A DNA stretch of 34,813 bases from the NCBI GenBank assembly GCA_042216335.1, contig JBDGTY010000006.1:26042-60854 (forward strand), in the 5' to 3' direction. Of this stretch, positions 1-31,653 are shown in pieces. A program made the translations under genes and the position numbers. How positions within the stretch are numbered: position 1 is the stretch's first letter; each line of letters begins with the position of its first letter. The stretch is from Candidatus Nanohalobium sp. Lineage in GTDB: Archaea > Nanohalarchaeota > Nanosalinia > Nanosalinales > Nanosalinaceae. Under the pieces are notes generated by a model, which made no database searches, was not told where the DNA came from, and worked only from the letters and a program-made list of their open reading frames with translations.

Positions 1-1103
1 TCCTCAGGCCGGAGGGTCCTGGAAACAGGTTCCGTTCTCTCAGTCGAGTAGTTGACCATAATTTTGGAAAAGTTCCCCGAGACGTTGAATGTGTAGGCCA
101 TCGACGAGAAGCTCGGAACACGGAAATTTACGCTTTTCTTCACGCCTGCATCGATGGAAAGGTTGACGGTTCTGACCGTGTTACCTCTGTTCACGAAGTC
201 GATAGCCAGGTTGGAACTCGAGGTGTCGTAGCGGACGCCCTCAAGCTTCAGGTTGTACCTTCGGTACGGTGTTTCAATCTTCTTGATGCCATAAATGCCG
301 TCGAAACCGCTGATTCCTGTGAAGGCCCTGCCTGTCTTCACCGCTATCTCCAGGTCTTTATCCGCGATAACGTCGATCTCCTTGGCGTACAGCATGTTCT
401 CGGCGCCGGCTACTTTCAACCTCCTGACACCGGAGCTGTCGATGAAGTTAGCGAGCCTTCTACGGTTCATCCGGAACAGCACGGGCTTGTCCTCGATCAT
501 CCTGGGGTTGAAGTAGCTTCGAGGGGATAGAACGGCCCAGGACGTGTTCATCCTTTTCGCCAGTTCCAGGTTCCTTTCCTGCCACGTCCCGTTGATGTAT
601 TCAGTACTGGAGAACCGTTTTCCGGGGTCGAAGTCGAACTCGCCGTAGAAGACCTTGGGCTTCGAAGAGTTCTCGAGTATCTGTCGGGCTCTCTGGTCGT
701 AGAAAAGTATCCTGTACTCTTTCCTAGCGGCGTATGGAAGTACGGAGACCGCATCCGTACCGAACTTATCGTTGACAACGACGAATCCCTCATGGTCTGT
801 GTAGTTAAGTGAGTTAACGTTCAGGACCTGTTCGAAGTTGAGGCCCGTACGCCTCTCTAGATCAGCGAAAGTCGGCGATTCAGCAGTATAGAGAGTTTCA
901 GGATCTTCTATGGTGTTTGCGGCTATCTTGGCGTCCGGCGGTGTCGCCACTGTGAACGTATCCCGATCCTTCAGGTCTGCGTGGTTCTGTGCCTTCGCCA
1001 CGTCCATCCAGCTGTCGGAGTTTATCACCGAGGTTCCAAGTACGGAGAAGGTCAGGAGTATGAGAAGTGCCGGCAAAAGTGTCTTCCGCGTGGACTGAGT
1101 CAT
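1..1103 (-). CDS. Secreted/cell-surface hypothetical protein, 3' end truncated by window edge
   Basis: Absent from the ORF track (no stop inside the window). Manual translation from ATG at 1103 gives MTQSTRKTLLPALLILLTFSVLGTSVINSDSWMDVAK..., open to base 1 (~367 aa). Sec-type signal peptide, several N-x-S/T sequons, beta-rich distal part. Confidence 0.8.
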   Translation of the reverse strand, partial: MTQSTRKTLLPALLILLTFSVLGTSVINSDSWMDVAKAQNHADLKDRDTFTVATPPDAKIAANTIEDPETLYTAESPTFADLERRTGLNFEQVLNVNSLNYTDHEGFVVVNDKFGTDAVSVLPYAARKEYRILFYDQRARQILENSSKPKVFYGEFDFDPGKRFSSTEYINGTWQERNLELAKRMNTSWAVLSPRSYFNPRMIEDKPVLFRMNRRRLANFIDSSGVRRLKVAGAENMLYAKEIDVIADKDLEIAVKTGRAFTGISGFDGIYGIKKIETPYRRYNLKLEGVRYDTSSSNLAIDFVNRGNTVRTVNLSIDAGVKKSVNFRVPSFSSMAYTFNVSGNFSKIMVNYSTERTEPVSRTLRPE

Positions 1104-1115
1104 GTATCCTGTTTG

Positions 1116-1130
1116 TTAAAACTTATTTAA
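1116..1130. promoter_or_regulatory. Putative shared TATA element of a 54-bp divergent intergenic region
   Basis: TTAAAACTTATTTAA between divergent ATGs at 1103 (-) and 1158 (+). Confidence 0.5.
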
Positions 1131-1157
1131 GTAGGAAAAGCCTTACTTCACGTGTAC

Positions 1158-1649
1158 ATGCAACCGGAAGTTCTGGCAGCGGCAGGCCTCGGAGTATCGG
1201 GCTTCACTCTAATCATAACTTTGACGCTTTTCCACCTCGCAAGGAAGAGGATGGTGGAACTTGAGTCCGATCTGGCCGAGCTCTCCCGGAGGCAGAAGGA
1301 ACTACTGGAAGTAGAGGAGGCGGTCATGGAGAGGCATCCAAGCTACGAGGATTTCGAGAAAACCGTTTCCAACCTTTCAGAAAGGCTTTTCCAGCTTGTC
1401 AGGGAGAAGTACGAGCTCGGAGAGATAACGACCTACGAGGAGATGATTCAGGTCCTGCAGGAGATGGACTCGGAGGACGAAGTCGTGGACGACCTGATCA
1501 ACTTCTTCGAGTACCTTGAGAAGATCGAGTACTCGGAAGAGGAACTGGACGAGGCTGACAGGGCAATGATCCGGCAGGCAGCCTTCAGGTTATTGAGGAA
1601 GGCCGGTTCTAGCCTAGAAGGTTTAGAAGGCCGTAGAGTATCAGGATGA
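1158..1649 (+). CDS. Membrane-anchored acidic helical/coiled-coil protein
   Basis: N-terminal hydrophobic helix (VLAAAGLGVSGFTLIITLTLFHLA) followed by RKR, a heptad-like segment and an acidic helical domain. ATG 1158 preferred over GTG 1152. Confidence 0.8.
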   Translation: MQPEVLAAAGLGVSGFTLIITLTLFHLARKRMVELESDLAELSRRQKELLEVEEAVMERHPSYEDFEKTVSNLSERLFQLVREKYELGEITTYEEMIQVLQEMDSEDEVVDDLINFFEYLEKIEYSEEELDEADRAMIRQAAFRLLRKAGSSLEGLEGRRVSG

Positions 1650-1833
1650 CTTCTCCAGCAACAAGGAAAATCGTCAGGAAATCATAATTAGGTATACCAA
1701 GCTTTCCTTCAATCAGGCTTACTTCCCTCTCCACTTTTTCCTCCAGATTATTCAGGCTTGATTTTTTCTCCTCTTTTTCCTCGGGTTCGAAGCTGAAAAA
1801 CTCTTCTTCGTCTTCTTCTGGCATACTCTTCAC
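1609..1833 (-). CDS. Small acidic tail-anchored membrane protein
   Basis: Acidic N-terminus (EEDEEEFF) and C-terminal hydrophobic helix (FLTIFLVAGEVILILYGLLNLLG). Abuts the stop of the upstream gene. Start is GTG 1833 or ATG 1824. Confidence 0.7.
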   Translation of the reverse strand: MKSMPEEDEEEFFSFEPEEKEEKKSSLNNLEEKVEREVSLIEGKLGIPNYDFLTIFLVAGEVILILYGLLNLLG

Positions 1834-1834
1834 C

Positions 1835-4153
1835 TTATATGAATCTGTCTCTGGTCTTTTTTCCTCTGGTTTTGAGCCTCCAGATTAGTGCCGCTGTCCA
1901 TACCAGCAGCAGGAGCAGGTAGACGGAGACTGATAGTATGTTGTTCGACGGTTTCTCGAGTTCGATCCTCATCGGGGCGAAGCCTAGGACATCTCCGTTG
2001 CTGGTGAAGACGAGTGCGTCGTTGCAGACGTCCTGACTTTCCGAGGTTTTAAGCTGGACCTGAACGCTCTTAGCTGAATTTGCCGGTACTGCGTAGGTAC
2101 GGTTTCCGGTGACCGCGCAGTTGCTTCCTCCACGGAACCTGGCTTCTATACCCTGTATGGGACGGTTGGTCGGGTTCTCGACCTGGACTCCCACGTATCT
2201 CTGCGTGGATGTCTGAAGGCTGAGGAACGGAGGAGATTCAACAACGTTGATCCTCTCCCTGTCTATCAGTTCGGATACGTTGACGGTGAACTGCTCGGTG
2301 TCGACGGTCGAGTCACCGAATTCTGCCTCAATCACCTGCGTCATGTTGCCTTCAGATGCATCTTCGGGTATGGTGACGAGCACCATACCATGCCTTGTCT
2401 CGTTCGGCCTGATAACCTGGAAAGTCTTCGGAACAGACGCCCAGCCCGAGTCAAGGCCAACGGTCACGTTTTCCGCGGCGACAGTTCCCGTGTTGTTCGC
2501 CGTGAATTCCACTGAGATCGTGTCACCTTTCTTGGCATCATAGAGATGCCTGGCTAGCGACAGGTTGAGCTTCACGGGCTGAGGTGTCGGCTGGAAGCTT
2601 GGTCCTCCACCCCCTCCAGCAGCTCCACCGCCGGAGCCACCACCGCCTGTTCCGCCACCTCCAGCATCCCGGGAGCCCTGGCCTTCAGAAGGCGACTGGC
2701 CGCCTGAGTTCTCCTCCCCAGTCTGCTTCTTGCCGTAGAGGGTAAAGATGGAGAAGTTCTTTATCTTTCCTCGATGGAATGCATACCTTGGGTTGACGCT
2801 CAGGTTGACCGCCAGCTTCTTCAGGGCATATGAGTCACCCGTGCCGTCGTACTTGTACATCCTGTTCGGCACCAGATTGGACATGTTAAGGTCGGGATAG
2901 CCCAGTCCCAGGTTCCGGAAGCTTGAACTGTTTGAAAGTCCCGTGACCTTGATCCGTGCACCGACCGGCTGGATATCGCTGCTGATGCCCGCGGGCCGTG
3001 GAAGAGATCGTGTGTAGCCCTGGACAGAGACGGACTCCGCCTCACCATATATAGGAGTGCCGGCTATGGAAACATTTCTGAGCTCGGCCGTCGATCTATC
3101 AAGGGTAATCGCAACACCGGAATCCCTGAGAACGACATCATTTAGAGACAGATTCGAACCATGAGCCTCGATACCGTACGTGTTACCGGAGAGATTCGAA
3201 TCCATCATCTCAGCTTCCGCTTCATCCCGTACGCAGACCGCACTCTGAAAGTTATGCATACTGACATCCATCAGTGTAACGTTTTCAGCTGTCACGGTTA
3301 CACCGCATTCGGCTCCGTCGCCGGTGTGACGCGTGTTGTAGAAATCTATGTACGCTCCTGGATTGGTTATCCTGACGCAGTCGCCCGAATCTATCTCCCC
3401 CATCAGGACGGAGGTCGTGTTCCCGGGCGCCTCTCCACAGCCTCTCACTGCTTTACCCCTGGAGAACAGGTTGACTGAGTAAGAGAAGTTCGAGCCCCGA
3501 AGCTTCGGAAGAAGGGCCTGGAAGTTGCATCCCGATGAGTAGCACTTCTCGTAACCTTCGCTTCCTCTCTTCTTGCCGTCTATCGGCGATACGAAGACAG
3601 GGATGGCTTCGTCTCCTTTTCTGTACTTCAGGAGGTACATGGTCGTGGAGCCGGAAAGGTTGGCGTAGGAGGCGTTGTAGTATTTTCCGTTCAGTTTGAT
3701 CTTCTTTCCTGTCTCGAACGTCCTGGCCGGGTTGTCGAACTTCTGGGAGTAGTCCGGGTAGAAGCTCGGGAAAAGCTCTTTGGAGAAAAGCTGGTTCCTC
3801 TCCAGCAGAGTCCTGTTCGTCATATTGTGCAGGCTAGAGGGTTGAATCTCCGTGACGTTGCCGGGCGCGAAGGCGAGGTAGTATCCTCCTCCCTTGACTC
3901 CTTTAAGTTGGGTAGTTAAGACGTTGCCGGTCTGGTTGGCGTTCAGGCTGAGCTTTCCGACCCTGAAACCTGAGAGAGGTTCGCTTCCTCTATCCACGGT
4001 TCCTGATATACCCGTCCATCTGTCGGATATGACGCTTCGGGAGACATCTGTCTGCTTGATGACTCCTGCATAGAAGGTTACTGCCCCGACAGAGACTGAG
4101 AGTACCAGTAAAGCGGTTAGGATGATTACAGGTTTCGAAACTTCTCGGCCCAT
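1835..4153 (-). CDS. Multidomain surface glycoprotein: signal peptide, domain paralogous to the 4188-4853 protein, parallel beta-helix (NosD/CASH-like) region, Gly-rich linker, two Ig/CARDB-like domains, C-terminal TM anchor
   Basis: Start reassigned to MGREVSKPVIILTALLVLSVSVGA (ATG 4153, AT box 24 nt upstream). Beta-helix-type repeats (CVRIT, GVTVTAENVTL, GNTYGIEAHGSNLSL), GGGGTGGGGSGGGAAGGGGG linker, GDTISVEFTANNTG-type Ig strand, and TM (ILSVSVYLLLLLVWTAALIW) plus a basic tail. Confidence 0.85.
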   Translation of the reverse strand: MGREVSKPVIILTALLVLSVSVGAVTFYAGVIKQTDVSRSVISDRWTGISGTVDRGSEPLSGFRVGKLSLNANQTGNVLTTQLKGVKGGGYYLAFAPGNVTEIQPSSLHNMTNRTLLERNQLFSKELFPSFYPDYSQKFDNPARTFETGKKIKLNGKYYNASYANLSGSTTMYLLKYRKGDEAIPVFVSPIDGKKRGSEGYEKCYSSGCNFQALLPKLRGSNFSYSVNLFSRGKAVRGCGEAPGNTTSVLMGEIDSGDCVRITNPGAYIDFYNTRHTGDGAECGVTVTAENVTLMDVSMHNFQSAVCVRDEAEAEMMDSNLSGNTYGIEAHGSNLSLNDVVLRDSGVAITLDRSTAELRNVSIAGTPIYGEAESVSVQGYTRSLPRPAGISSDIQPVGARIKVTGLSNSSSFRNLGLGYPDLNMSNLVPNRMYKYDGTGDSYALKKLAVNLSVNPRYAFHRGKIKNFSIFTLYGKKQTGEENSGGQSPSEGQGSRDAGGGGTGGGGSGGGAAGGGGGPSFQPTPQPVKLNLSLARHLYDAKKGDTISVEFTANNTGTVAAENVTVGLDSGWASVPKTFQVIRPNETRHGMVLVTIPEDASEGNMTQVIEAEFGDSTVDTEQFTVNVSELIDRERINVVESPPFLSLQTSTQRYVGVQVENPTNRPIQGIEARFRGGSNCAVTGNRTYAVPANSAKSVQVQLKTSESQDVCNDALVFTSNGDVLGFAPMRIELEKPSNNILSVSVYLLLLLVWTAALIWRLKTRGKKTRDRFI

Positions 4154-4187
4154 ATACCTTTTTGGCACTTTCCCCGATTTAAATTCA

Positions 4188-4853
4188 TCACTCCAGCTCG
4201 AGGTACATGCTGTAGGACTTTCCACCGTCACCGTACTCACTTTCCGGCAGGATAAGCTGGTAATCCGCGGCAAAACCGTTGAACGCCACCCCATTCCTGA
4301 TAGGGCCTGCGAAGAAGCCGCCGTTACCGTCACTCAGGTATAGAGTTTCCCAAGCCGGATCACCGGTAGAGTTGTACGTGAACGAGGCAAGAGTGTCGTT
4401 GACCGCCCCGGGCTGAAAACCTGAGTCTATGCTGCCGTTCTTCGAAGTGAAGGTCTCAGAAACCTCCTCACTCCCGTTCTTCAGGAAAGGATACTGCTCC
4501 TGCATGTATGATATGTTGCCTGGGCTCCAGTCACCTGAGAAATCCAGAGGCTGGGAAGAAGCGTAGACATACCTCGCATCCAGCAATCCCCACGAGAAGA
4601 ACGGTGACTGAGTATCCTGGCCGACGATGTACTGGGCGGTCACGTTACCGAAGACCCCCGCCCAGGTATCCGAAGGAGCGCGGGGAGCCGATACATCCAT
4701 CTCCATGACGGTACCGGCTCCGATGCTGTCGTTCTCGGGAGGCGTGGCAGAAGTGAAGTTACCTGTGGTATATGTCTTGTTGATCGAGTCCTGTCCCAGC
4801 ACGGGAGAGGCCAGAAGAAAGATGAAGACCAGGAGGGAAACCTTCCGCCGCAT
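4188..4853 (-). CDS. Small secreted beta-rich protein of unknown function (candidate filament/structural subunit)
   Basis: Signal peptide MRRKVSLLVFIFLLASPVLG, no TM anchor, many N-x-S/T sequons. Motifs WAGVFGNVT, DYQLILPE and terminal YSMYLELE. Confidence 0.85.
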   Translation of the reverse strand: MRRKVSLLVFIFLLASPVLGQDSINKTYTTGNFTSATPPENDSIGAGTVMEMDVSAPRAPSDTWAGVFGNVTAQYIVGQDTQSPFFSWGLLDARYVYASSQPLDFSGDWSPGNISYMQEQYPFLKNGSEEVSETFTSKNGSIDSGFQPGAVNDTLASFTYNSTGDPAWETLYLSDGNGGFFAGPIRNGVAFNGFAADYQLILPESEYGDGGKSYSMYLELE

Positions 4854-4876
4854 AAAGACTAAATGATGCGGCCGGG

Positions 4877-4891
4877 TTAAAATAGGTTTCC
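4877..4891 (-). promoter_or_regulatory. Putative BRE-TATA promoter of the 4188-4853 gene
   Basis: Minus strand GGAAACCTATTTTAA ending 24 nt before the ATG. Confidence 0.6.
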
Positions 4892-4894
4892 AAG

Positions 4895-7765
4895 CTAGCT
4901 GACAGCCACGAGGATCTTGCCCTCACCGCTCTCCGGCTCCAGTGCCTTCCCGATGGCTGAAGACCGGCAATCCTGGTTGTGAGACATGATCTCTCTAAGA
5001 GGCTTATCTGAGTTCATCGGATCGATGACCTCACACTGCATACCAACGCCCGGAGTACCGGAAGGCACGATCCTGTCACCTCTCTCGATGTCTCCATTGA
5101 CGTCCGAAACCTTGACAGGAACTTTACCGGTGAGTGCGACAGGGTAGCCGTCTACATCGCTGTTCATGGTCTGGCCTGGATCAGTGGAGACTACTCCGAG
5201 AACCTTTCCATCAAACCGTTCATCCGACCTGACAACTCTGTTGTCCTGTGTAGAGGAAACTGTCACTATTTCACCTTTCTCAAGCTCCTGACTGCTCCTG
5301 TAGTTCTCGGCCAGGTCAGCACCGTTCGTGTAGATGTTGCCATAAACCTTGATGCTGTCGTTGACTGAGACGTTTCCTCGTGTGGAGTCAGTGATGTTGA
5401 AACCGTTCATATCCAGGACTCCACCGCTCTGATGAGGCCCGCTTTTCCCGATGTAGTTGTCGGCAAAGGTCACGGAATCCCTGACAGTTGAACTATCCCC
5501 ATTATTGATTTCCAGCACATCGTTCACGTTTGTGGAATTGATCGAAAGGTTCTGGAGTTCATTTGATGGGTCAGCATCTGCATCCGCGTTATTTGCTGAG
5601 ACATAGTTCTTAACCCATCCTAGGTCGGCCACGGCATCGTTATTGGAATCACTCGGAGTACCGTAGTTGTCGATAACTGTTCCATTGGCATTCGCTCCCT
5701 GGGCGAGAACCTCTGTCAGATTCTGGACCTCGTTCGAAGCCGAAGAATCAGCCGCGTCGTACTCACTGTTGGCCGAATCCCAGCTGACCCCGTTACCGGC
5801 AAGCCCGGAAAGCTCATTACCATCGACTAGGTCGGCGTTCAATCCTGAACCACTTCCCTCGTAGACGCTCAAGGTACCGGAACTGTAGTTCAACTGAGCG
5901 CCAGCAACCGAAGAAGCAAGGCTCAAGCTTACATCCGCATCCGTTCCTGGCAGAACATTGTTGGAAGTACCGGAGAGCCCGTTACCTGCCACGAGATCTG
6001 CCTGGATGGCGTTCACGTTGTCCTGAATAGTGATCGAATCCCTGACAGTCGAGCTGTCACCGCTGTTTATCTCGATTACATCATTTGTACTGCCCGAGTT
6101 CACAGTCAGGTTCTGCAGTTCATTCTCGGGGTCAGAGTCTGCATCAGCGTTGCTCGAACTGCTTACATAGTTCTTCACCCATCCGACATCAGCTACAACA
6201 TTATTCTGACTGTCACTTGGACTCCCGTAGTTCACGATAAGTTTGCCATTCGCGTTATTACCCTGACCAAGCACTTCCGTCAGGTTCTGTATCTCGTTGG
6301 ACTGGGATGCGTCCGCGTCAGCATTGTTGGAGGCCACGTAACCTTTCAGCTGGCTGTAGGTGACCGCTGCCTGTGACTGGGTCGAGTTCGACAGATTAAG
6401 AATCGCTGTACTGCCAGCGTCGTTGCTGACACTCAGTACATTCCCGAGTCCTTGATTGTCTGTATCAGCCTGGAAGTCATCCCTTACAGTAACTGTATTA
6501 CCGTTCTGGATGGTGATGGAGTCGTTCCTGCCATCTGTATTGTTGCTTACTGTCAGGGTCTGGTCATCGGAGCCTGCCTGGCTTATCTGATTATCGACGT
6601 ATGTCTTATTGACGGCGTCGCCACCACTGTTCGGAGCAGGGATTCCTGTAATCCTGAAACCACTCATATCAATATTTGTATTTGCAACAGCTCCCTCAGA
6701 AAGAACCTGTGCCAGCGTCTGGTTGTCGGTACCGTTTTCATCGGTAAAGGAGGTATCAGCCCCGTTCTCAATCGGGATAGTCACAATCTGACCGGAACGT
6801 GTCGTGGCCTGAAGGTTCTGGTCGTCTGTACCGTTTGGAACGTAGTAATCCTTGATGGCGGCGTCCTGACCATTCGTTATCTCAATCTGGTGAGAAACAC
6901 TGCTTGCCCCAGAAGGAGCTGAAGCATTCACTGAACTCAGATCCTGATTATCGGTATCCTGCTCGTAGGCATCATCCACAATCACATAATTACCTTCACT
7001 GATCGAGAGATTGTCATCTACACCTGAAATGTTCGCAGTAAATGAAAGAGTCTGGTTGTCGCTGCCACCTGACACAGAATCAACATAAGACTTGTTTACC
7101 GCGTCTCCCGGACTATTCGCGACCACGTTCTGAAGCTGGTGGCCGTTCAGGTTGATGCTCTGGTTCGCCAGAGCACCGTAAACGAGAACCTCGGAAAGAG
7201 TCTGATTATCGGTATCGGCCTCGAAGTTGTCATCCAGAGTAATCGAACTGTAAATCGTGCTGCTGTCCCCGCTATCCAAGTTGATCACGTCATCGATACT
7301 GGCAGAGTTAATAGTAATATTCTGTAACTCATTTGCGGAATCCGAGTCACCATCCGCATTGTTCTGGTCAATATAGTTTTGAACGTACCCTACATCAGCC
7401 ACAGCATCTGTGTTAGAATCCGAGACATTGCCGTAATTTTCGATAATAAGACCTCCAGCACTGTTTCCTCTACCCAACACAACCGAAAGATTAGCGCCCG
7501 TACGATCATCCACATAAGCCTTAGTGGCTGCTTCATGGGGAAGAGTAGGGCGGGAAAGATTGTAGATAGTATTTCCATGCAGGTTCAGATCCGTAGAGAC
7601 AGTCATATTGTCCAGAGTGGACTGTATCTCATAGCTTCCGGATATCACACCGTTCTGAAGAGTAATCGAGTCAGGGGTTAAGGTAAGTGACTGAGCGGTA
7701 ACCGGGACTGCCAGAAGCCCAATCACGCCCAGAAAAACTGCAAATCTAGAGAGACGAATTTTCAT
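4895..7765 (-). CDS. Secreted tail-fibre/trimeric-adhesin-like repeat protein with C-terminal peptidase G2-like intramolecular chaperone domain
   Basis: Signal peptide. Neck/stalk motifs AATKAYVD, DAVNKSYVD, DAVNKTYVD and fibre motif GSGSGLNADLVDG. Internal ~90-aa repeats. C-terminal GADLAENY...GVVSTDPG...PVALTGKVPVKV...GDRIVPS...IGKALE domain. Confidence 0.8.
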   Translation of the reverse strand: MKIRLSRFAVFLGVIGLLAVPVTAQSLTLTPDSITLQNGVISGSYEIQSTLDNMTVSTDLNLHGNTIYNLSRPTLPHEAATKAYVDDRTGANLSVVLGRGNSAGGLIIENYGNVSDSNTDAVADVGYVQNYIDQNNADGDSDSANELQNITINSASIDDVINLDSGDSSTIYSSITLDDNFEADTDNQTLSEVLVYGALANQSINLNGHQLQNVVANSPGDAVNKSYVDSVSGGSDNQTLSFTANISGVDDNLSISEGNYVIVDDAYEQDTDNQDLSSVNASAPSGASSVSHQIEITNGQDAAIKDYYVPNGTDDQNLQATTRSGQIVTIPIENGADTSFTDENGTDNQTLAQVLSEGAVANTNIDMSGFRITGIPAPNSGGDAVNKTYVDNQISQAGSDDQTLTVSNNTDGRNDSITIQNGNTVTVRDDFQADTDNQGLGNVLSVSNDAGSTAILNLSNSTQSQAAVTYSQLKGYVASNNADADASQSNEIQNLTEVLGQGNNANGKLIVNYGSPSDSQNNVVADVGWVKNYVSSSSNADADSDPENELQNLTVNSGSTNDVIEINSGDSSTVRDSITIQDNVNAIQADLVAGNGLSGTSNNVLPGTDADVSLSLASSVAGAQLNYSSGTLSVYEGSGSGLNADLVDGNELSGLAGNGVSWDSANSEYDAADSSASNEVQNLTEVLAQGANANGTVIDNYGTPSDSNNDAVADLGWVKNYVSANNADADADPSNELQNLSINSTNVNDVLEINNGDSSTVRDSVTFADNYIGKSGPHQSGGVLDMNGFNITDSTRGNVSVNDSIKVYGNIYTNGADLAENYRSSQELEKGEIVTVSSTQDNRVVRSDERFDGKVLGVVSTDPGQTMNSDVDGYPVALTGKVPVKVSDVNGDIERGDRIVPSGTPGVGMQCEVIDPMNSDKPLREIMSHNQDCRSSAIGKALEPESGEGKILVAVS
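5455..7490 (-). repeat. Degenerate protein-level repeats within the fibre gene
   Basis: Three copies of LxxVLxxGxxAxGxxIxNYGxxSDSxxxxVADxGxVxNY...NADxDxDxxNELQN...GDSST...DN, and two copies of DNQTLxxVLxxGAxANxxI...DAVNKxYVD...DxQTL...GN. Confidence 0.85.
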
Positions 7766-7788
7766 ACCTTAAAATTTGTAAGGGTCAA

Positions 7789-7802
7789 TTAAAATAGTTC
7801 CC
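7789..7802 (-). promoter_or_regulatory. Putative BRE-TATA promoter of the fibre gene
   Basis: Minus strand GGGAACTATTTTAA ending 24 nt before ATG 7765. Same 9-mer and spacing as the 4877 promoter. Confidence 0.6.
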
Positions 7803-8009
7803 ACCGAGACACGGCGGCAGACTACAGCACAACAAAGCCACAGAAAGTGCAGGAAGAAAGACTTGATTCTCAAAAATTCAATCATGAGGGCTGAAGATTC
7901 TGTAAACTTTCTGAAGGATTTTTATCTGCTCAAGGCGTCCCTTATGGTCGAATAATCGTTAATCTCAGAAGCCCAGTTATTTTTTATTGGGAGGCGGGAA
8001 AAGGGATGT

Positions 8010-10529
8010 ATGAAGAAACTGGCAGTGATCCTAGGAATCCTGCTCTGCGGGACGGCCGCGGCACAGGTCACAGTCAAACCCAACATAGAGTTTGTCCTGC
8101 CCGATACGAATACACGGGTAACGGTAGGCGAATCTTTCGGGGCGCAGAACGTCACGGTAAACAATGACTCGCTGCAGATGGGGCACAAAAACTTCTCCTT
8201 CACCCAGTACAGAAACGGAACGTACAAACCACTTACGATAAAAATCGCGAGCTATGACTTCACTTTCAGCAGCTACCCTAAGGTTTTGATGCAGTTCAGT
8301 GCCAAATCAGGCGCCAGCGGAGACAAGTTCGTATACGCCAACATCTCAAGTCTGCCTGACCTCCCATCTGCCTCAGGAACGGATACGGAACCGGTTTACA
8401 GGCTTTCATCCGGAAGTGATACCTCTCAGTCCTTAGAAGGCAACATAGCTATAAACGAGACTTTCTCCAGTGGGGCAGTTTTCACTCTGGAGGCCGGTGT
8501 TCCGGGAAGCTTCGACGAGAAACAGAACACCACTGACTCGAAGGGGCAGACATCAACCGGAGGTAGCTCCGGCGGGGGCGGGGGAAGCTACTCAGGGCCA
8601 ACTCAACAGCAGTTAAACAATATAAATGAGACATTGCAGGAGTTGAAGGAGCAGCTTGACAACGCTTCGGAGTACATCGATTTCAGCAGTAGCAGCATCA
8701 ACGCGGAGCTAAAGCCAGGCGAGTCAAAGAGAACCAGCATAACACTTGTCAACAACCTGAACCGATCCCAGACGTTCAATATCTCGACCACCAGCGATGT
8801 AAGGGAATACATCAAGGTCCAGGATTCCCTCACAGTAGCGCAGGGAGAGAGCAAGAAGCTCGATGTTAAGATCACTATCCCTTCGACCGAGTTGCCGAAG
8901 AGTGTTTCCGGCAGCCTGAAGTTCAGCAGTTCACTCGTCGACAAGGCCAGTATCCCTGTGAATATCGATGTCTTGCCTCCGGATCGCCAGACTCTGAGTC
9001 TCAGCCTGAACCCATTGTTCAACACTGTAGCCCCGGGCGAGACTCTCAGGTTCGAGGCCAAGCTGCAGAATGAGGGTTACACCGGCACGATCAACGTGAC
9101 CACGGATATAGAGCTGAAGGATCCCGAGACAGGGAACGTTATAGCCAGGAAAACCGTGACCGCCGAGGTAGGAGGCTCCAAGACTGACGTAGTGACGATA
9201 GAGGTGCCGGAGAACGCCACGAAACAGCAGTACACTCTGGAGGGAACATCAACGTATACAGGCATCAACGCCTCGGAACAGGCTACCTCTATAGCACCTG
9301 TCACGGTCGCGACACCGTTCTGGAAGAGGAAAGTCGCCGGAGTCACATACAGGAACGGCGCGATAGCCTCAATCATCCTGCTGATCCTGGGGATCGGAGG
9401 CTACTACGGATACAGATACAGACAGGCCATCATCGCGAAGAAGCGACGCTACGACGAAGACATAGACATGGAAACTATCCCAAGCGGCGGAGAAGACCAG
9501 GCCTACGTAGGTCAGATCGCGGAGAGAGGTAAGAGAACATTCGTGGAGATGGATGACCTGATGACACACGCGATGGTTGCCGGAGCCACAGGATCCGGTA
9601 AAACCGTTACAGGACAGGTCATGGCCGAGGAAGCACTCAAGGAAGGAAAGAACGTCATCGTCCTCGACCCTACAGCCCAGTGGACCGGATTCCTCCGGGA
9701 AAACACAGACGACAGCATGTTCAGCGAATACGATAAGTTTGACATGTCTAAGAGTGATGCACAGGCCTTCGACGGCAACATCCGGGCCGTAGAGCCAGGA
9801 GAATCCATCGACATCACTCCTTACCTGAACGAGGACAGCGATATTGACGGACAGATCATAATCTTCAGCCTCCACAAGCTCGACAGCAAAAATATCGACA
9901 AGTTCGTCAAAGAGACCATCCAGCAGGTGTTCGACGCCAACCTGCCGGAGCAGAACCATTTAGAGACCATGATAGTATACGACGAGGTTCACAGGCTGCT
10001 CGACGAGTTCGGAGGGAGTGGAAAAGGACTGAAACAGGTCGAGAGAGGTGCAAGAGAGTTCAGGAAGTGGGGTATCGGCATGTTGCTGCTTTCCCAGGTT
10101 ATCAGCGACTTCCCGCACGAGGTCAGGACCAACATCGGCACAACAGTCCAGATGCGTACAGAGGACGAGAACGACCTTGACAGGATGAAGGACAAGTTCG
10201 GCATGGACACAGTCAAATCCATCGCCAAGGCTGAGATCGGGTCAGGCATGCTTCAGAACCCGGAATATAATCACGGTCGGCCATACTTCGTCGACTTCAG
10301 ACCGCCGCTCCACAGCCCACACAGGCTCAGCGACTCCGAACTCGAGAAATACGAGCAGTACAACAAGATGATCGATCTGCTCGAACAGAAAGTCGATAAG
10401 ATGAAAAGCTCCGGCAAGGACACCTATGAACTGGAGAGCGAGATTCAGCTGGCGCGTAAAAACCTGAAGAAGGGAAGCTTCAACCTCGTAGAGACATACA
10501 TTGAGGAACTGAAGGAAGAACTTCAGTAG
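8010..10529 (+). CDS. Type I membrane protein with a large extracellular Ig-like region fused to a cytoplasmic FtsK/HerA-superfamily (DUF87-like) ATPase
   Basis: Signal peptide MKKLAVILGILLCGTAAA, Gly linker and two Ig-like domains. TM GAIASIILLILGIGGYYGY (~9357-9413) followed by RYRQAIIAKKRR. Walker A GATGSGKT (9582-9605), VIVLDP strand, Walker B MIVYDEVH, REFRKWG Arg-finger region and LLSQ motif. Confidence 0.9.
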   Translation: MKKLAVILGILLCGTAAAQVTVKPNIEFVLPDTNTRVTVGESFGAQNVTVNNDSLQMGHKNFSFTQYRNGTYKPLTIKIASYDFTFSSYPKVLMQFSAKSGASGDKFVYANISSLPDLPSASGTDTEPVYRLSSGSDTSQSLEGNIAINETFSSGAVFTLEAGVPGSFDEKQNTTDSKGQTSTGGSSGGGGGSYSGPTQQQLNNINETLQELKEQLDNASEYIDFSSSSINAELKPGESKRTSITLVNNLNRSQTFNISTTSDVREYIKVQDSLTVAQGESKKLDVKITIPSTELPKSVSGSLKFSSSLVDKASIPVNIDVLPPDRQTLSLSLNPLFNTVAPGETLRFEAKLQNEGYTGTINVTTDIELKDPETGNVIARKTVTAEVGGSKTDVVTIEVPENATKQQYTLEGTSTYTGINASEQATSIAPVTVATPFWKRKVAGVTYRNGAIASIILLILGIGGYYGYRYRQAIIAKKRRYDEDIDMETIPSGGEDQAYVGQIAERGKRTFVEMDDLMTHAMVAGATGSGKTVTGQVMAEEALKEGKNVIVLDPTAQWTGFLRENTDDSMFSEYDKFDMSKSDAQAFDGNIRAVEPGESIDITPYLNEDSDIDGQIIIFSLHKLDSKNIDKFVKETIQQVFDANLPEQNHLETMIVYDEVHRLLDEFGGSGKGLKQVERGAREFRKWGIGMLLLSQVISDFPHEVRTNIGTTVQMRTEDENDLDRMKDKFGMDTVKSIAKAEIGSGMLQNPEYNHGRPYFVDFRPPLHSPHRLSDSELEKYEQYNKMIDLLEQKVDKMKSSGKDTYELESEIQLARKNLKKGSFNLVETYIEELKEELQ

Positions 10530-10564
10530 GCTTTAACAACGAGCCTGACGTACAGGTGGATTAG

Positions 10565-11599
10565 ATGGGAATACTCAACCCCTTCGGCAGTGAGGAAGAG
10601 ACTGAAAGCGTTTCAGATGCAGTCTCACAGGCGCAGAACCAGGTAGACGAGGAACTGGACGAATCCAAAGAGGAATGGGAGGCACAGAGCCCCCAGCAGG
10701 GTCAGACAGGCGAAGAAACAGACATGATCGCCGAGGTACAGAAGCTGAAGGCGAAGCTGGAGGCACTAGACGAGAAACAGGAGACTATATCCGCGAGGAA
10801 CGACCGGTTGTCTGAAAACATCGGAAGCATGCGTGAGAACATGAAGGACGTCCAGCAGGATGTCCAAGAGGCTGTCGCTGCAGCGCAGAAATCCTCCGAC
10901 CTTGTGGAATCGCTTGAGCCTCAGGAAATCGAGCAGGAGCTCCAGCAGCGTACTTCGGAGCATGAGAAGATAGAGGCGCAGGTGGAGAACCAGCAGGAGA
11001 TGATCCAGGAGCTGCAGAACCAGATACAGGATCTGCGGCAGGACTTCGAGCAGATAGGTTCTATAGAGACAGTGAAGCAGTTCAGGGACGAGGCCGAGCA
11101 GAAGCTTGCGACCGTCCGGAAGCTTGAGGAACGGGCACAGAGCCAGGCGAACAAAGTGGAGGACATATTCCATGAACTCCAGCAGAAGTCCGCCCGGATA
11201 GAGAAACTGGAGGACCAGCAGGAGGAACTGAGGGAGGAGGTCTCGGAGAACGCACGGAACATCGACGACCTCGAAGTCAAGTTTCAGGGACTTCCAAACG
11301 AGGACGAGTTCAAGGAGTTACAGGACAGTTTCAAGGAGAAAGTCGAAGAGATCGACGCTGTTTTGCCGGCAATGGAGGAGGCCTTCGACGATATGGAAGT
11401 CAACGAGATGTCAAAGGAGAACCGGAAGATTGCCAGGAAGCTGAAGGAGATAGAGGACAAGATAGAGGAAGTCGACCAGCAGGTCATGGAACAGGAAAGA
11501 GATGACGAAGAGGTAGACGAGCTAAGGAAAGCGGTTAAGAAGAACACGGAGCTTCTTGTGGATATAGTCGAGAGGCTGGACGGACACCGCATCCTGTAG
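10565..11599 (+). CDS. Long acidic coiled-coil protein
   Basis: ~290 aa of heptad-like E/Q/K-rich sequence with no TM or signal peptide, and a short hydrophobic N-terminus MGILNPF. Confidence 0.85.
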   Translation: MGILNPFGSEEETESVSDAVSQAQNQVDEELDESKEEWEAQSPQQGQTGEETDMIAEVQKLKAKLEALDEKQETISARNDRLSENIGSMRENMKDVQQDVQEAVAAAQKSSDLVESLEPQEIEQELQQRTSEHEKIEAQVENQQEMIQELQNQIQDLRQDFEQIGSIETVKQFRDEAEQKLATVRKLEERAQSQANKVEDIFHELQQKSARIEKLEDQQEELREEVSENARNIDDLEVKFQGLPNEDEFKELQDSFKEKVEEIDAVLPAMEEAFDDMEVNEMSKENRKIARKLKEIEDKIEEVDQQVMEQERDDEEVDELRKAVKKNTELLVDIVERLDGHRIL

Positions 11600-11649: not shown

Positions 11650-12906
11650 ATGACAGAACAAAACCCGGAGGATTCCGGAAGTTCGGGAGAGATGAGCAAG
11701 TACCAGTTGAAGAAACTGGTCAACGAACTGGAAGACATCAGAGGAAGGAACACGGAACTGGTCTCGCTGTATATACCAGCCGGATACGACATGTCGAAGA
11801 TTTCCGAATTCATAACTTCAGAACAGTCCGAAGCAGAAAATATCAAGTCGAAGCACACTAGGAACAACGTTCAGGACGCTCTCGGGAAGATCGGCAGGAA
11901 AGTTAAGGAGGAACAGGAGACACCGGAGAACGGCGTCGCATTCTTCGCAGGAAACGTCTCAGACACAGAAGGAAGACCCGACATCAAGATATGGGAGGTC
12001 GTACCGCCCCAACCCATCGAGTCACGGCACTACCGATGCGACAAGGAGTTTGTTCTAGAACCCTTGAAGCAGATGATCGTGGACGACCGAGTCTATGGTT
12101 TAATCGTCTGCGACAAGAATGACGCCGCTATCGGATATCTGCAGGGCAGCAGCATCAAAACAGCATACACACTGGAGTCAAACGTGCCTGGAAAGACCAA
12201 AGCGGGAGGTCAGAGCGCTCAGCGCTTCTCACGTCTACGTGAAGAGATGCTGAAGACTTTTCTAAGCGATATAGCTGAGAAGTCGAAGAACGCGTTCATG
12301 AAGAAGGCGCGGGAGGATAAACTGCTCGGTATCCTCGTCGGAGGCCCGGGATTCGTGAAGGACAAGCTTCTGGACGACGATTACCTGCATCAGGAACTCC
12401 AGGACAAGGTCATCACGCGGAAGTCTCTGGACGTAGCCGGCGAGGCAGGTCTTTCACGTCTCGTGGATAAGGCCGAGGAGGAGATAGAGGACTCAAAGGT
12501 CGTAAAGGAGAAGAACCTTGTCAACGAGTTCTTCGACAACCTGCAGAAAGAGAACGGGAAGTCCGAATACGGTGTAGAGCAGGTCGAGGAAGCCCTGAAG
12601 ATGGGTGCCGTGGAGACCGTACTGATCTCGGAGGACGTCAACCTCTACAGGGCGAGGTACAAGTGCCCGAACGGCCACGAAAAGGAGTTCTTCGAGGACA
12701 AAGCAGATATCGACGATTCAGTTGACTGCGACGAGTGCCACGAGGAGATGGATCTGGAAGACATCGGAGACATCGTGGATGTCTTCGGTGAAAAGGCGGA
12801 GGAGATGAGCTCCAGCCTTGAGATTATATCAACTGATCACGAAGAGGGTCAGAGACTGATGAACCTTGGAGGAGTAGCCGCGATCATGCGTTACAGGATC
12901 CGGTAA
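11650..12906 (+). CDS. prf1: Peptide chain release factor aRF1
   Basis: NIKS motif, YRCD motif, GGQSAQRF catalytic loop, GRNTELVSLYIP N-terminus, Zn-ribbon-like insertion (CPNGH...CDEC) and GGVAAIMRY C-terminus. Confidence 0.98.
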   Translation: MTEQNPEDSGSSGEMSKYQLKKLVNELEDIRGRNTELVSLYIPAGYDMSKISEFITSEQSEAENIKSKHTRNNVQDALGKIGRKVKEEQETPENGVAFFAGNVSDTEGRPDIKIWEVVPPQPIESRHYRCDKEFVLEPLKQMIVDDRVYGLIVCDKNDAAIGYLQGSSIKTAYTLESNVPGKTKAGGQSAQRFSRLREEMLKTFLSDIAEKSKNAFMKKAREDKLLGILVGGPGFVKDKLLDDDYLHQELQDKVITRKSLDVAGEAGLSRLVDKAEEEIEDSKVVKEKNLVNEFFDNLQKENGKSEYGVEQVEEALKMGAVETVLISEDVNLYRARYKCPNGHEKEFFEDKADIDDSVDCDECHEEMDLEDIGDIVDVFGEKAEEMSSSLEIISTDHEEGQRLMNLGGVAAIMRYRIR

Positions 12907-12933: not shown

Positions 12934-13497
12934 ATGACAGACGCATTAAGCAGGATTGATTTTCCAGACAACAGATACACTGTAAAGCAGAAAGCAGTGA
13001 GAAACGCGTACAAGATATACGACTCGGCCGGCGAAGAGGTCTTGAAGACTAAGCAGAAGATGTTCAAGATGAAGGAGGAGTTCCCGTTCACCGACCCGGA
13101 GGGGAACGCAGTCTTCAATGTCAAGGCCGAGAACGTGATGGATATCGCCGGAGACTACGCCATCACCGATGCAGGAACAGGAGAGAAGGTTGCGGTGCTG
13201 AAGAAGGATTTTACGTTCCTCGTGCACTCCTGGAGGATCCACGACGCAGATGACAACCAGGTCGCACTTATCCAGAGCCGTGGAAAGCTTATAGGACTTC
13301 TCAGAGCGTTCTCCAATATTGCCAACATGCTACCGCACAAGTACACAATCGAGGACGCGGAAGGAGAGCAGATCGGAACGATACAGGGCAAGTTCAGCCT
13401 CCGAGACAGGTACGAGATAGAGCTGGAGGAAGGAGTAGAGAACAAGGAGATGATCCTCGCAGCCGCCATCACCATCGACGCTCTCGAAGGGAACTAG
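12934..13497 (+). CDS. LURP-one-related/scramblase (tubby C-terminal-like) family protein
   Basis: Repeated Y/WxIxDxxGxxV strands, KQKMFKMKEEF, and C-terminal ILAAAITIDA helix. Confidence 0.8.
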   Translation: MTDALSRIDFPDNRYTVKQKAVRNAYKIYDSAGEEVLKTKQKMFKMKEEFPFTDPEGNAVFNVKAENVMDIAGDYAITDAGTGEKVAVLKKDFTFLVHSWRIHDADDNQVALIQSRGKLIGLLRAFSNIANMLPHKYTIEDAEGEQIGTIQGKFSLRDRYEIELEEGVENKEMILAAAITIDALEGN

Positions 13498-23102: not shown

Positions 23103-24763
23103 CTGAGTTCACCTCTGCGGGAAAGATACGTCATCTCCAGTGCTCCGATCAATGCGAGCAGTGCCGCGATGTACTTCCGGGCCGGATCCCTACCAGGGCT
23201 GTCTCCTACATCCGTCCTTGAAGTGGCAGTGTTGATATTTGGTGAGGACTCCTCCGGGTTGAGGAGATTGGCCGCATACGTCGGCTTGCCCCTGTAAAAA
23301 CCTGTCCCGGGGACAGTGGTGTAGCCCCTGATCTTCCGGCCGCGATAGGTGACGGAGTTCCCGAAGGTGTGCTGCGTGCCTGTCTCCAGGTTAAGCTCGC
23401 TTCCGGTCTTCAGGTCTGTCATCCTTCCGATCACCTGTTTCCAGAAGATTGGGTAGTTAAGCTTCTGACCGAAGCTTCCATCATCGACGTTGTAGAGCAG
23501 TACATCCTCATCCTGAGACAGCACCAGTGCCTCCTCAGGCTCCGCCAGGGATGTACCGGTGACGTCGTAGCCAGTTACAGATGAGTTGAAGCTGGTCGCC
23601 ATCCCTGCCGAAACCCTGACCTGTGTAGTGTAACTCCCAGAAGCATTTTCCACAGGCGCGAACTCGGGCAAGTCTTCTCTGTTCTCAAGTATAATTTTAG
23701 CGCCAGCCTTCAATTTCTGCCTCAGCTTGGTTTTTCTTTCCTCTGTCAGCTCGAACTCCTCTCCTATGAAGTAGACGTCAGCCTCACTGATGCTTTCATG
23801 ATGAGTGTAGGAGGTCGAGTTGATGAGTTCGATAGCCGTCCTGAAGTACCTGCTTTCCTCTCCGAGGTACGCGACCTTTATGTTCCTGTTCTCCGGCATC
23901 GAGACGTACAGCTTGTTATCCAGTGAGAACTCATCCATCGGAAGGGAGAGCTCCTTGGCGCCACCCGAGAGATCTATTGAAACTGTCTCCGATGAGAGAG
24001 GTGGAATGACCACTTTCCTGTTCTCCCCCGGCTTCTGCAGTTCGATGGTCCGATTCCGGTCGATGAAGTTCCGGATTGTGACCTCGGCCCTCCCGTTCTC
24101 TACCCTCAGATCAGTGAACCCGTGACTGTTCCTGTGGTCGATATCCATGACTTTGACCGTCCTGTCAGCCGCAAGCTCGTTAAGCACAGAATCCAGGTCT
24201 CCGCCACCCGTATGATCCATGTCAGATGCGATCACAACTTTTCCTCCGAAGTTCGAGGCCAGCTGGAGGGCTGAGACAAGGTCTGTGCTCGAGGCCGAGT
24301 TCTCGTGGCCCTGTATGAAGCTGCGCGCCCTCTCCGTCGAGGCATCCCGCAACTCGATCTCAGGGCTTCCTGATACAGTGATAATCGTGTTCCTGTTGCC
24401 GAGGTGCTTCAACGCAAAGTTTTCGACCTGCTGTCGGTTGTCATGCATGCTCGCAGAGGTATCAAGGAGGATAACGGTTTTCCCATCCGATTCAAGGCCG
24501 GAAACCAACGGATTGGCGATCGCCAAGGCCGCTAGAGAGATAAACAGTATGTGTAGCAACAGAAGACGGTTTCTCTTGAGCGCCTGGAGAGCGTTCTGTA
24601 TCTTTCCCTTTTTCTGATCCTCGGAGAAGAACGCCATCGACGGCATGACCTCTTCCTCAGGCTTCGGCTTCACCAGGTAGGAGATCAACAAAGGGATTAT
24701 CCCGAGAAGGGCGAGGAGGCCTGCTGGGTTGACGAAGTTCCGGGTTATCGCTTCAATCATCAC
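23099..24763 (-). CDS. BatA N-terminal + VWA domain membrane protein
   Basis: FVNPAGLLALLGIIPLLISYLVKPKP...MPS BatA signature, ALAIANP, MIDAS ILLDTSASM, IASD, ANLLNPEES and C-terminal TM. Confidence 0.9.
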   Translation of the reverse strand: MMIEAITRNFVNPAGLLALLGIIPLLISYLVKPKPEEEVMPSMAFFSEDQKKGKIQNALQALKRNRLLLLHILFISLAALAIANPLVSGLESDGKTVILLDTSASMHDNRQQVENFALKHLGNRNTIITVSGSPEIELRDASTERARSFIQGHENSASSTDLVSALQLASNFGGKVVIASDMDHTGGGDLDSVLNELAADRTVKVMDIDHRNSHGFTDLRVENGRAEVTIRNFIDRNRTIELQKPGENRKVVIPPLSSETVSIDLSGGAKELSLPMDEFSLDNKLYVSMPENRNIKVAYLGEESRYFRTAIELINSTSYTHHESISEADVYFIGEEFELTEERKTKLRQKLKAGAKIILENREDLPEFAPVENASGSYTTQVRVSAGMATSFNSSVTGYDVTGTSLAEPEEALVLSQDEDVLLYNVDDGSFGQKLNYPIFWKQVIGRMTDLKTGSELNLETGTQHTFGNSVTYRGRKIRGYTTVPGTGFYRGKPTYAANLLNPEESSPNINTATSRTDVGDSPGRDPARKYIAALLALIGALEMTYLSRRGELR

Positions 24764-31601: not shown

Positions 31602-31653
31602 GACTGAACTTTTAATCGGAGGGCATAAAAGCTTGAAACCAGCCTACCTAACT

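Follow-up and report, generated by a model that had tools for sequence, protein, structure and literature searches.

This study focused on a run of eight genes, g1 to g8, in the genome of Candidatus Nanohalobium sp., a member of the Nanohalarchaeota (GenBank assembly GCA_042216335.1). They lie within a 34,813-nucleotide stretch of contig JBDGTY010000006.1 (positions 26,042 to 60,854 of the forward strand), hereafter called the window, and form eight consecutive open reading frames (ORFs) between its first base and the aRF1 gene (11650-12906), which was recognized by its eRF1_1, eRF1_2 and eRF1_3 domains (Pfam, E 3e-16 to 3e-36). An earlier note, made from the sequence alone, had described these genes as a single, undescribed surface apparatus driven by an ATPase. 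The comparisons reported here point instead to a short member of a published family, SPEARE, with a conserved partner, lying next to surface genes that are found apart from it in related genomes. The source genome, labeled G000 below, comprises 1.02 Mb in 74 contigs and is 96% complete. The proteins of the window are acidic, intein-bearing genes for RFC and dCTP deaminase lie near aRF1, and the relatives of G000 carry the giant genes that are typical of Nanohaloarchaeota.

Table 1. Genes g1 to g8, with positions counted from the first base of the window (aa, amino acids)
Gene	Product	Position	Strand	Basis or remarks
g1	secreted/anchored protein, 367 aa visible	3..1103	-	ORF; truncated by window edge
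g2	165 aa, one N-terminal span and acidic helical tail	1152..1649	+	hydrophobic residues 7-25
g3	74-aa tail-anchored protein	1609..1833	-	hydrophobic residues 52-70; start abuts g4 stop
g4	772 aa, anchored at both ends	1835..4153	-	g5-like N-domain, NEW3/CARDB-type domains, C-terminal span
g5	221-aa secreted protein	4188..4853	-	signal-like N-terminus
g6	956-aa repetitive fiber-like secreted protein	4895..7765	-	conserved C-domain of ~170 aa at 4895-5430
g7	839-aa short SPEARE-type membrane ATPase	8010..10529	+	Pfam and PDB profile matches
g8	344-aa acidic cytoplasmic coiled-coil protein	10565..11599	+	no hydrophobic segment; 28% Asp+Glu

In outline, the inventory given by the earlier note was borne out. 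The eight genes do end at aRF1 and represent a non-housekeeping, cell-surface locus of a DPANN archaeon, and seven of the eight products carry a hydrophobic segment of at least 19 residues, g8 being the only one without, in keeping with the description of seven secreted or membrane-bound proteins, two of them small membrane proteins (g2 and g3, with one span each). Pfam gave matches above cut-off for g7 (HerA_C, DUF87, T4SS-DNA_transf and TrwB_AAD_bind) and g4 (NEW3); the same scan returned nothing for g1, g3, g5 and g6 and no curated family at cut-off for g2, and a PHROGs search of g1-g6 gave no match. In PHROGs, g7 matched a terminase-like P-loop and g8 tape-measure coils, the latter taken as compositional. 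For wider comparison, the ATPase was searched for in 61 related genomes, and the families of g5 and of an upstream 573-aa protein (p573) were counted in 70 genomes of the phylum. Three sets of loci were also compared: 20 nanohaloarchaeal SPEARE-type loci, 10 loci of the g5 family outside G000, and the 80 best DPANN ATPase loci, within which 39 ATPase frames are open inside the locus (complete frames).

The product of g7 begins with a signal-like segment, followed by a unique N-terminal domain, a Gly/Ser linker, an immunoglobulin (Ig)-like stalk, one membrane span, a HerA/FtsK-type P-loop domain and a helical C-terminal end. The predicted topology puts most of the protein on the outer side of the membrane and the ATPase on the inner side, with a single span (~residues 442-468) separating an ectodomain of ~440 aa, which has Ig-like matches only, from the P-loop (522-531). 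This agrees with the earlier picture of a membrane-bound FtsK/HerA-type motor with an ectodomain of its own. The protein belongs to the FtsK/HerA P-loop superfamily: Walker A (GxxGxGK) and Walker B (DE) motifs are present, all 79 invariant columns of a 14-copy alignment (A4) are shared, Pfam scores exceed their cut-offs (HerA_C, 44.2 bits against 22; DUF87, 33.2 against 23.2; T4SS-DNA_transf, 27.9 against 20.1), and the PDB profiles matched were those of HerA-like YjgR (1.6e-6), HerA and DotL.

A single g7-type ATPase is present in G000. Among the 61 related genomes, 25 gave a match at E<=1e-30 and 33 did so at E<=1e-5. Identity to the copies in relatives is 33-59%. In these genomes, g7 (from residues ~136-258 to 838) aligns with the C-terminal end of open frames of 1,276-9,433 codons, and it also matches adjacent frames of 620-680 codons. 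The genome of Nanohaloarchaea archaeon SG9 contains three such frames (8,592, 3,488 and 677 codons), the best match (E 2.9e-175) spanning residues 136-839 of g7 at 41% identity. For this organism, SPEARE proteins of 8,553, 4,057, 3,315 and 655 aa have been reported (Hamm 2019, PMC6642349). The proteins described there have a long ectodomain, a span close to the C-terminus and an intracellular C-terminal part that was read as a type III restriction domain and is conserved more strongly than any other part of the family, which includes short forms of 655 and 717 aa. A later paper (Reva 2023, PMC10266531) re-read the domain as VirB4/TraG-like and proposed a secretion 'straw'; its authors also drew attention to a coiled-coil end and to a second, downstream ATPase gene.

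Of these family features, g7 has both the conserved C-terminal P-loop region and a single span toward the C-terminus, and it lacks an ectodomain of thousands of residues with laminin-G and similar domains; given the published short forms, a long ectodomain is typical of SPEARE rather than obligatory. Its sequence thus places g7 in the published SPEARE / HerA-DUF87 family, as one of the short members. The features it shares with that family, namely the conserved C-terminal module and the match to the SG9 frames, mean that the motor is neither undescribed, as had been supposed, nor alone. What is conserved is the membrane-proximal stalk, the one span, the cytoplasmic P-loop domain and the helical end at the C-terminus, along with the outside-to-inside topology. 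The g7 protein differs in having no laminin-G, protease-like or toxin-like region, in its unique N-domain, in the absence of an adjacent second ATPase, and in being present as one copy. Beyond the related genomes, 265 proteins of 1,470-4,195 aa match g7 at E<=1e-10, named at their source as HerA- or DUF87-domain proteins and coming from Nanosalina, Woesearchaeota, Micrarchaeota, Aenigmatarchaeota, Pacearchaeota, Nanoarchaeota and Hadarchaeales; 531 relatives were confirmed in the genome collection, and 16/39 complete frames are short, g7-like forms of 456-843 aa. In two Woesearchaeota loci (L187, 324-2669; L164, 2657-5185), another frame (782-843 codons) runs across the start of the short ATPase gene. 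This frame gave no match to the ATPase profile at E<=1e-20, and might be a divergent second ATPase of the kind noted by Reva 2023.

The likeness of g7 to the HerA, VirB4, VirD4/TraG/DotL and CedB-type ATPases extends to Walker A and B and to the four Pfam families that score above their cut-offs, but no NCBIfam equivalog was reached (CedD, 43.4 bits against 600; TraC, 28 against 567; HerA, 21-26 against 800-970), so g7 was assigned no further than to the FtsK/HerA superfamily and the SPEARE family. Enzymes of the HerA/VirB4/VirD4/CedB type are not known to combine a large N-terminal ectodomain with a single span. Nor did the locus match the gene set of a pilus, archaellum, type IV secretion system (T4SS) or Ced system, as the earlier note had also concluded. 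The T4SS models TraC, TraD, VirB4 and TrbC scored 19-28 bits against cut-offs of 366-800, and the CedD match covers the P-loop region only. T2SSE, the family looked for as a sign of a type IV pilus or archaellum, is absent from g1-g8; two T2SSE-type ATPase genes lie elsewhere in G000, the first on the same contig at a distance of 30 kb and the second on a different contig. A Pfam scan of 38 proteins of the window and the upstream stretch found no secretion channel component and no other T4SS, Ced, pilus or archaellum gene. In anti-phage HerA systems, the HerA protein is soluble and is paired with an effector such as Sir2 or DUF4297. The product of g7 is membrane-anchored and carries an ectodomain, the PADLOC models HerA and mad8 match only its P-loop, and no partner family of such systems was found among 11 proteins scanned with PADLOC.

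Family searches with g8 (Pfam, NCBIfam) returned coiled-coil families only, which, with the lack of a hydrophobic segment, is consistent with the long cytoplasmic coiled coil described before. Its conservation goes further. A g8 homologue adjoins the last ATPase gene in 18/20 nanohaloarchaeal loci (17 downstream, one upstream); of the other two, one has no homologue and one is at a contig end. A hidden Markov model (HMM) of the g8 core (residues 55-275, alignment A5, in which conserved motifs are visible) scored 83-285 bits in 53/80 DPANN loci from several phyla, always on the ATPase strand and in 34 of the 53 within 300 nt of the ATPase. Downstream sequence of 3 kb or more is present in 13 of the 27 loci that gave no hit, and not in the other 14. 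As a control for specificity, the same model gave 258 bits for g8 in G000 and 18.5 bits for the next best coiled coil. These data indicate that g8 is a conserved cytoplasmic coiled-coil partner of the ATPase, and more than a composition match, as far as sequence comparison can tell. DPANN-wide coiled-coil proteins have been reported before in type IV pilus-like loci with CpaF and TadC (Hamm 2023, 10.1101/2023.02.24.529834). They resemble g8 in being DPANN-wide and beside a membrane-associated ATPase system, and differ in that theirs accompany CpaF and TadC whereas g8 accompanies a HerA-type ATPase.

Longer homologues of g8 contain extra coil only, plus a C2H2 finger in one of eight scanned. 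In the homologues at L037, L038, L039 and L041, a clade with G001, G013, G009 and G002, CxxC or C2H2-type zinc-finger motifs occur at both the N- and C-termini; the L037 copy, the only one of the four scanned, matched zf-C2H2 at 8.6e-8, the other motifs were read from alignment A5, and g8 itself has none. Strain-level variation was seen at the g7/g8 junction, where the window and one 4.5-kb contig of run X1 show 19 single-letter differences, clustered at window positions 10268-10298 and 10590-10738, in the last part of g7 and the first part of g8, respectively.

The second set of genes includes some with a domain found in g5. The small secreted subunit and its paralogue on a membrane-anchored protein, as proposed previously, were recovered as g5 and g4: the relationship is undetected by BLASTP (E 0.016), and an hhalign comparison of the g4 N-domain (alignment A3) with the g5 family (A2) gave a probability of 96.85% (E 2e-10, 165 columns). 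A 228-aa paralogue of g5 (p228, E 5e-11) is encoded upstream on the same contig. Together with a 472-aa CARDB protein (CARDB472), these are the four proteins of G000 with a g5-like domain, and all four lie in this island; the head is free in g5 and p228, anchored in g4, and C-terminal in CARDB472. The likely start of g4 is the ATG at 4153 (772 aa); its ORF is open to 4333, and the GTG there is less likely according to alignment A3. The protein has a Pfam NPCBM_assoc/NEW3 match of 28.1 bits (cut-off 24.4) and hydrophobic segments at both ends. A beta-helix in g4, read by eye from the sequence, received no support from any tool.

The g5-like family extends across DPANN archaea, is covered by no Pfam model and is large, with 1,636 cluster representatives at E<=1e-3, 1,247 at <=1e-10 and 589 at <=1e-30. 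Most members are stand-alone proteins of 214-282 aa, and some sit at the C-terminus of proteins that reach 5,626 aa. Named matches are all 'hypothetical' and have no Pfam domain, Atlas look-alikes of g5 come from Woesearchaeota and Nanobdellota, and tandem arrays of g5-like genes occur in two Woesearchaeota genomes. The domain was also found, at G004:C1:845253-845834 and G024:C15:54431-55006, within open frames of 3,078 and 3,105 codons, respectively, that gave no ATPase match and are not SPEARE-type; along with the C-terminal copies, this shows that it also caps other giant surface proteins. DUF7096 was considered as an identity for the family and rejected, as it matched 3/28 members and was absent from the family's own genome, G000, at E<=0.01; no mention of DUF7096 was found in a literature search. 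Against PDB profiles, the best match of the family was to Hcp1 at E 0.28, which is not usable.

In other DPANN phyla, the same domain is joined to the ATPase. A g5-like N-terminal head was found on 20 of the 39 complete ATPase frames (proteins of 1,154-1,708 aa), in the order g5-like domain (~residues 42-260), a stalk homologous to residues 219-440 of g7, span and ATPase, so that the fused head occupies the position of the unique N-domain of g7. That N-domain was itself considered as a diverged g5-like head, a candidate that was dropped when the family HMM gave no hit to g7 at E<=0.01. Genes of the p573, CARDB472 or g5 type neighbor the ATPase in 5/80 DPANN loci, and stand-alone g5-like, g4-like, p573-like or CARDB472-like genes flank it in L153, L158, L164, L166, L187 and L193. 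The g5-like domain was not found in the 20 nanohaloarchaeal SPEARE-type loci. A functional tie between the ATPase and g5-like parts is thus supported in part by the fusions and neighborhoods of other phyla; in nanohaloarchaea the two are encoded apart. Such fusions and neighborhoods are Rosetta-stone-type evidence that head and motor operate in the same setting; they do not prove a complex, because many different adhesion domains are combined in SPEARE ectodomains and clustering is common among surface genes.

The remaining small genes, g1 to g3, appear to belong with g4 and g5 by position. The product of g1 has an N-terminal hydrophobic segment (residues 9-27); in the genome copy, the end of g1 cannot be read. 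It has no family in Pfam (E<=0.1), PHROG, NCBIfam or PADLOC and is a distant paralogue of p573. The predicted Atlas model for its residues 19-250 is similar to CW_binding_2 repeat proteins (TM 0.52-0.60), which is a lead only. Homologues of g2 occupy the same position in 4/10 g5-family loci (G027, G073, G068 and G064; E 2e-6 to 1e-35). A g3-like ORF encoding 75-116 aa, which has the same span at its C-terminus, adjoins the end of the g4 homologue or overlaps it in G027, G004, G024, G068 and G073; its conservation is positional and undetected by BLAST.

The left border of the locus as first drawn is only the window edge, since related surface genes continue for ~15 kb upstream. These specify TatC, two fibers with YadA-head repeats (802 and 1,141 aa), CARDB472, MoxR, DUF58 and VWA proteins, p228 and p573. 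The MoxR (AAA_3, 5.1e-58, 195 bits), DUF58 (2.2e-33, 115.7 bits) and VWA (VWA_2, 5.8e-16) genes are three consecutive ORFs on the same strand, and so constitute a Bat-type operon upstream of the window. The order fibers-CARDB472-MoxR-DUF58-VWA-p228-p573-g1-g2-g4-g5 is kept in G073 and mirrored in G068, with parts of it in G064 and G056, and MoxR-DUF58-VWA are kept in order in G056, G068 and G073. At the 10 g5-family loci, g5 is followed by g4 in seven (one g4 being a 101-aa stub), and a g1-type gene is present in seven. Distribution within the phylum is patchy (g5 family, 12/70 genomes; p573 family, 11/70). By these sequence comparisons, g5-g4-g3-g2-g1 is the distal half of a larger accessory cluster that includes p573, p228, VWA, DUF58, MoxR and CARDB.

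This cluster resembles Bat-type operons in having MoxR AAA_3, DUF58 and membrane VWA genes in that order in its upstream part, and differs in that, in G000, surface genes (g5-like, p573/g1 and g4) follow the operon. The function of Bat-type operons is itself unsettled. A literature search found no paper linking MoxR-DUF58-VWA genes plus a surface cluster to nanohaloarchaea or DPANN archaea. A second VWA pair is present 10 kb from g1-g8 (window 20886-24763, minus strand), encoding a 554-aa protein with BatA_N, VWA and DUF7408 domains and a 738-aa VWA_3 protein, and there are therefore two Bat-like sets on one contig of G000.

The presence of Bat-operon-type MoxR, DUF58 and VWA genes brings up the alternative that unrelated functions share a variable island. 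In that case, g1-g5, p573 and the MoxR-VWA genes would serve the building and maintenance of the symbiont's own envelope or S-layer, and g7-g8 would be a DNA or protein translocase (for uptake or conjugation-like transfer) or a HerA-type defense ATPase. The CW_binding_2-like fold predicted for g1 and the C-terminal anchors, which are typical of archaeal envelope proteins, would fit the first role, while the second is favored by the matches of the g7 P-loop to PADLOC mad8 (3.7e-16) and to several HerA models, by those of g8 to the SMC-like LmuB and JetC coils (PADLOC), and by the best NCBIfam hit of g7, the DNA-translocating ATPase CedD. However, the patchy occurrence of the cluster misfits an essential envelope function, the defense and Ced matches involve the P-loop only and fall far below their cut-offs (43 bits against 600 for CedD), no other defense component was present among the 11 proteins scanned, and the fusions to extracellular heads favor a surface role for the ATPase. 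We consider this alternative decidedly unlikely.

The fiber gene, g6, contains internal DNA repeats (D1-D3). The whole protein matched no family (Pfam, PHROGs, NCBIfam), and a PDB profile search with it gave nothing usable. Only its last ~170 residues are conserved; in each of 14 aligned copies they are separated from the stop by 0-11 codons. This C-domain is carried by fibers of 209-1,549 codons in 19/61 related genomes and, at E<=1e-3, by 578 longer proteins from nanohaloarchaea and bacteria of the candidate phyla radiation (CPR), with YadA_head on 11 of the 120 matches listed. Its paralogue in G000 is the C-terminal end of the 802-aa YadA-head protein. The description of g6 as a fiber with a chaperone domain therefore stands as regards a conserved C-terminal domain, and is left less certain as regards the chaperone, which depends on sub-threshold matches to Peptidase_G2: 23.7 bits in one of 14 members and 24.7 bits in one database relative, against a cut-off of 25 that 0/14 reach. 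In one family member, a GADxAE motif aligns to positions 30-101 of the Peptidase_G2 profile; the best PDB profile match of the C-domain was at E 0.89, and no relative was identified there. A Peptidase_G2-type intramolecular chaperone is plausible from the sequence. In its repetitive nature, the position of the C-domain at the extreme C-terminus and the paralogous C-domain on a YadA-head-repeat protein, g6 is like trimeric fiber adhesins and phage tail fibers (Peptidase_G2 / S74); it is unlike them in the sub-threshold score and the lack of a PDB relative. Genes for fibers with this C-domain lie on another contig or >100 kb from the ATPase in 7/7 genomes that have both. The possibility that g6 or g4 is a piece of a split giant SPEARE ectodomain was also considered, and was rejected after a tblastn comparison with the giant frames, which the 20 loci cover only in part, revealed no similarity.

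Comparison of gene order among nanohaloarchaea does not support the view, proposed in the earlier note, that the eight genes form one machine. Homologues of g1-g6 were found in 0/20 SPEARE-type loci, and g7 or g8 in 0/10 g5-family loci. Of the 12 g5-positive genomes, eight also have a g7-type ATPase somewhere and four have none that could be found, and among the 11 of them with loci read, the ATPase adjoins the cluster only in G000. The gene-neighborhood analysis that the note had suggested as a check thus upheld the pairing of g7 with g8 (18/20 and 53/80 loci) and gave no support to the wider grouping, as g1-g6 were not found beside that pair in nanohaloarchaeal relatives. In G068 and the congener G001, g5 lies directly beside aRF1 without g6-g8, and in the complete congener G003 there is no island at all, the synthetase gene being directly beside aRF1. 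These arrangements indicate that g6-g7-g8 is an indel between g5 and aRF1. In a tree of g7 and 13 of the 25 copies, g7 grouped with copies from other genera and not with that of G001, which is of the same genus (support 100/99 and 100/100). Logan contigs of run X1, which come from an independent assembler and possibly from the source sample, bridge g4-g5-g6, g6-g7-g8 and g8-aRF1 at an even depth of 61-74. No marks of a mobile element were found around g6-g8, that is, no tRNA gene and no flanking direct or inverted repeat, repeats being present only inside g6. Given the tree grouping, the bridging contigs at even depth and borders free of tRNA genes and flanking repeats, the indel is most simply explained as an insertion in G000 rather than a loss in G001 and G068, although the direction is not settled.

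It could still be argued that the genes represent a single, integrated machine that is split into parts. The motor and base would be provided by g7, as a ring, together with g8, g4 and g5 would supply the head, and g6 would be an adhesin, with g1-g3 as accessory envelope parts and the upstream MoxR-DUF58-VWA proteins as assembly chaperones. The frequent fusion of a g5-like head to the ATPase (20/39 complete frames), at the very site of the unique N-domain of g7, speaks for such an arrangement, as do the stand-alone genes of the cluster's types beside the ATPase in the six loci named above, the confinement of all four g5-like-domain proteins of G000 to one island, and the adjacency of the genes in G000, where the order is backed by the bridging contigs. 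Nevertheless, within the phylum this adjacency is unique to G000 among the 11 of 12 g5-positive genomes with loci read, no g7 or g8 was found in the 10 other loci, the cluster is present in four genomes in which no such ATPase was found, and g6 is never linked to either unit elsewhere; in addition, the mosaic nature of SPEARE ectodomains makes a shared domain type weak evidence of contact. On balance, the split machine seems rather unlikely. A broader form of the idea, which we regard as an unlikely conjecture, is a DPANN-wide device for host contact, distinct from a T4SS and anchored by its ATPase, of which g7-g8 would be the conserved core and the g5-like head an exchangeable part; in G000 it would be seen in split form. 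The head would be fused in Woesearchaeota and Nanoarchaeota, anchored (g4) or secreted (g5, p228) in G000, with assembly at the surface aided by MoxR-DUF58-VWA and with g6-type fibers as added adhesins.

The explanation that we favor, and consider probable, is that the locus contains three units of one surface toolkit, namely g7+g8, the g5-g1 accessory cluster and g6, and not an obligate single machine. The region would be the right-hand end of a hypervariable cell-surface island between an aminoacyl-tRNA synthetase gene and aRF1. In the first unit, the cytoplasmic P-loop domain of g7 is presumably ring-forming, as suggested by its superfamily, with a short Ig-like stalk directed outward. This would be the only energy-coupled unit, a ring ATPase in the membrane braced by its coiled-coil partner, g8. 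By analogy with published SPEARE hypotheses, it may act at the contact site with the haloarchaeal host, either moving a macromolecule across the symbiont membrane or performing mechanical work on the ectodomain. The second unit would supply envelope or adhesin proteins built from the DPANN-specific g5-like head, CARDB/NEW3 domains and a CW_binding_2-like fold. The third, g6, would be a stand-alone, trimeric-fiber-like adhesin whose C-terminal domain is common to many DPANN and CPR fibers. In nanohaloarchaea, the units occur apart and would be gained or lost independently.

Several observations weigh against this explanation. The mechanism proposed for the ATPase derives entirely from its superfamily and from published SPEARE hypotheses. 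The four g5-positive genomes in which no ATPase was found are only 77-89% complete, and as the other 8/12 carry a g7-type ATPase, the phylogenetic profile does not separate the units. The fusions and neighborhoods of other phyla could reflect a real physical partnership, the partners of which are encoded apart in nanohaloarchaea. Finally, aRF1 lies ~2 kb downstream of the ATPase-coiled-coil pair, with two genes between, in 2/80 loci (L128 and L185, one a Nanohalarchaeota and one a Nanoarchaeota record), which may be chance or may reflect an ancient linkage, in which case the indel would have the opposite direction.

Two other features of the window are worth recording. A LURP-one-related, scramblase-like protein of 187 aa is encoded directly after aRF1 (window 12934-13497, plus strand), and this pair of genes is kept in G001, G003 and G013. 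The dCTP deaminase and RFC small subunit genes (window 16265-18271 and 31564-34752, both plus strand) contain inteins with LAGLIDADG domains, that of the dCTP deaminase having an HTH domain as well.

SPEARE-type proteins are leading candidates for the means by which DPANN archaea attach to and exploit their hosts, and a type IV secretion-like role in host contact has already been proposed in print for the family. The g7 locus represents a stripped-down version, in which the ectodomain is short, the ATPase is present once and a second one is lacking, which makes it of a tractable size for biochemistry and structure. It also offers three handles that were not found in print: a coiled-coil partner gene conserved across phyla, a family of g5-like heads (at least 1,247 representatives at E<=1e-10) that is fused to the ATPase in many lineages, and an accessory, MoxR-VWA-linked surface cluster. 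In the consulted parts of the published SPEARE accounts, on which their supplements may also bear, no mention was found of a separate coiled-coil gene, of the g5-like head or of a link to p573 and CARDB472. The three handles define which parts are core and which are interchangeable, as is needed for testing models of secretion, uptake or adhesion.

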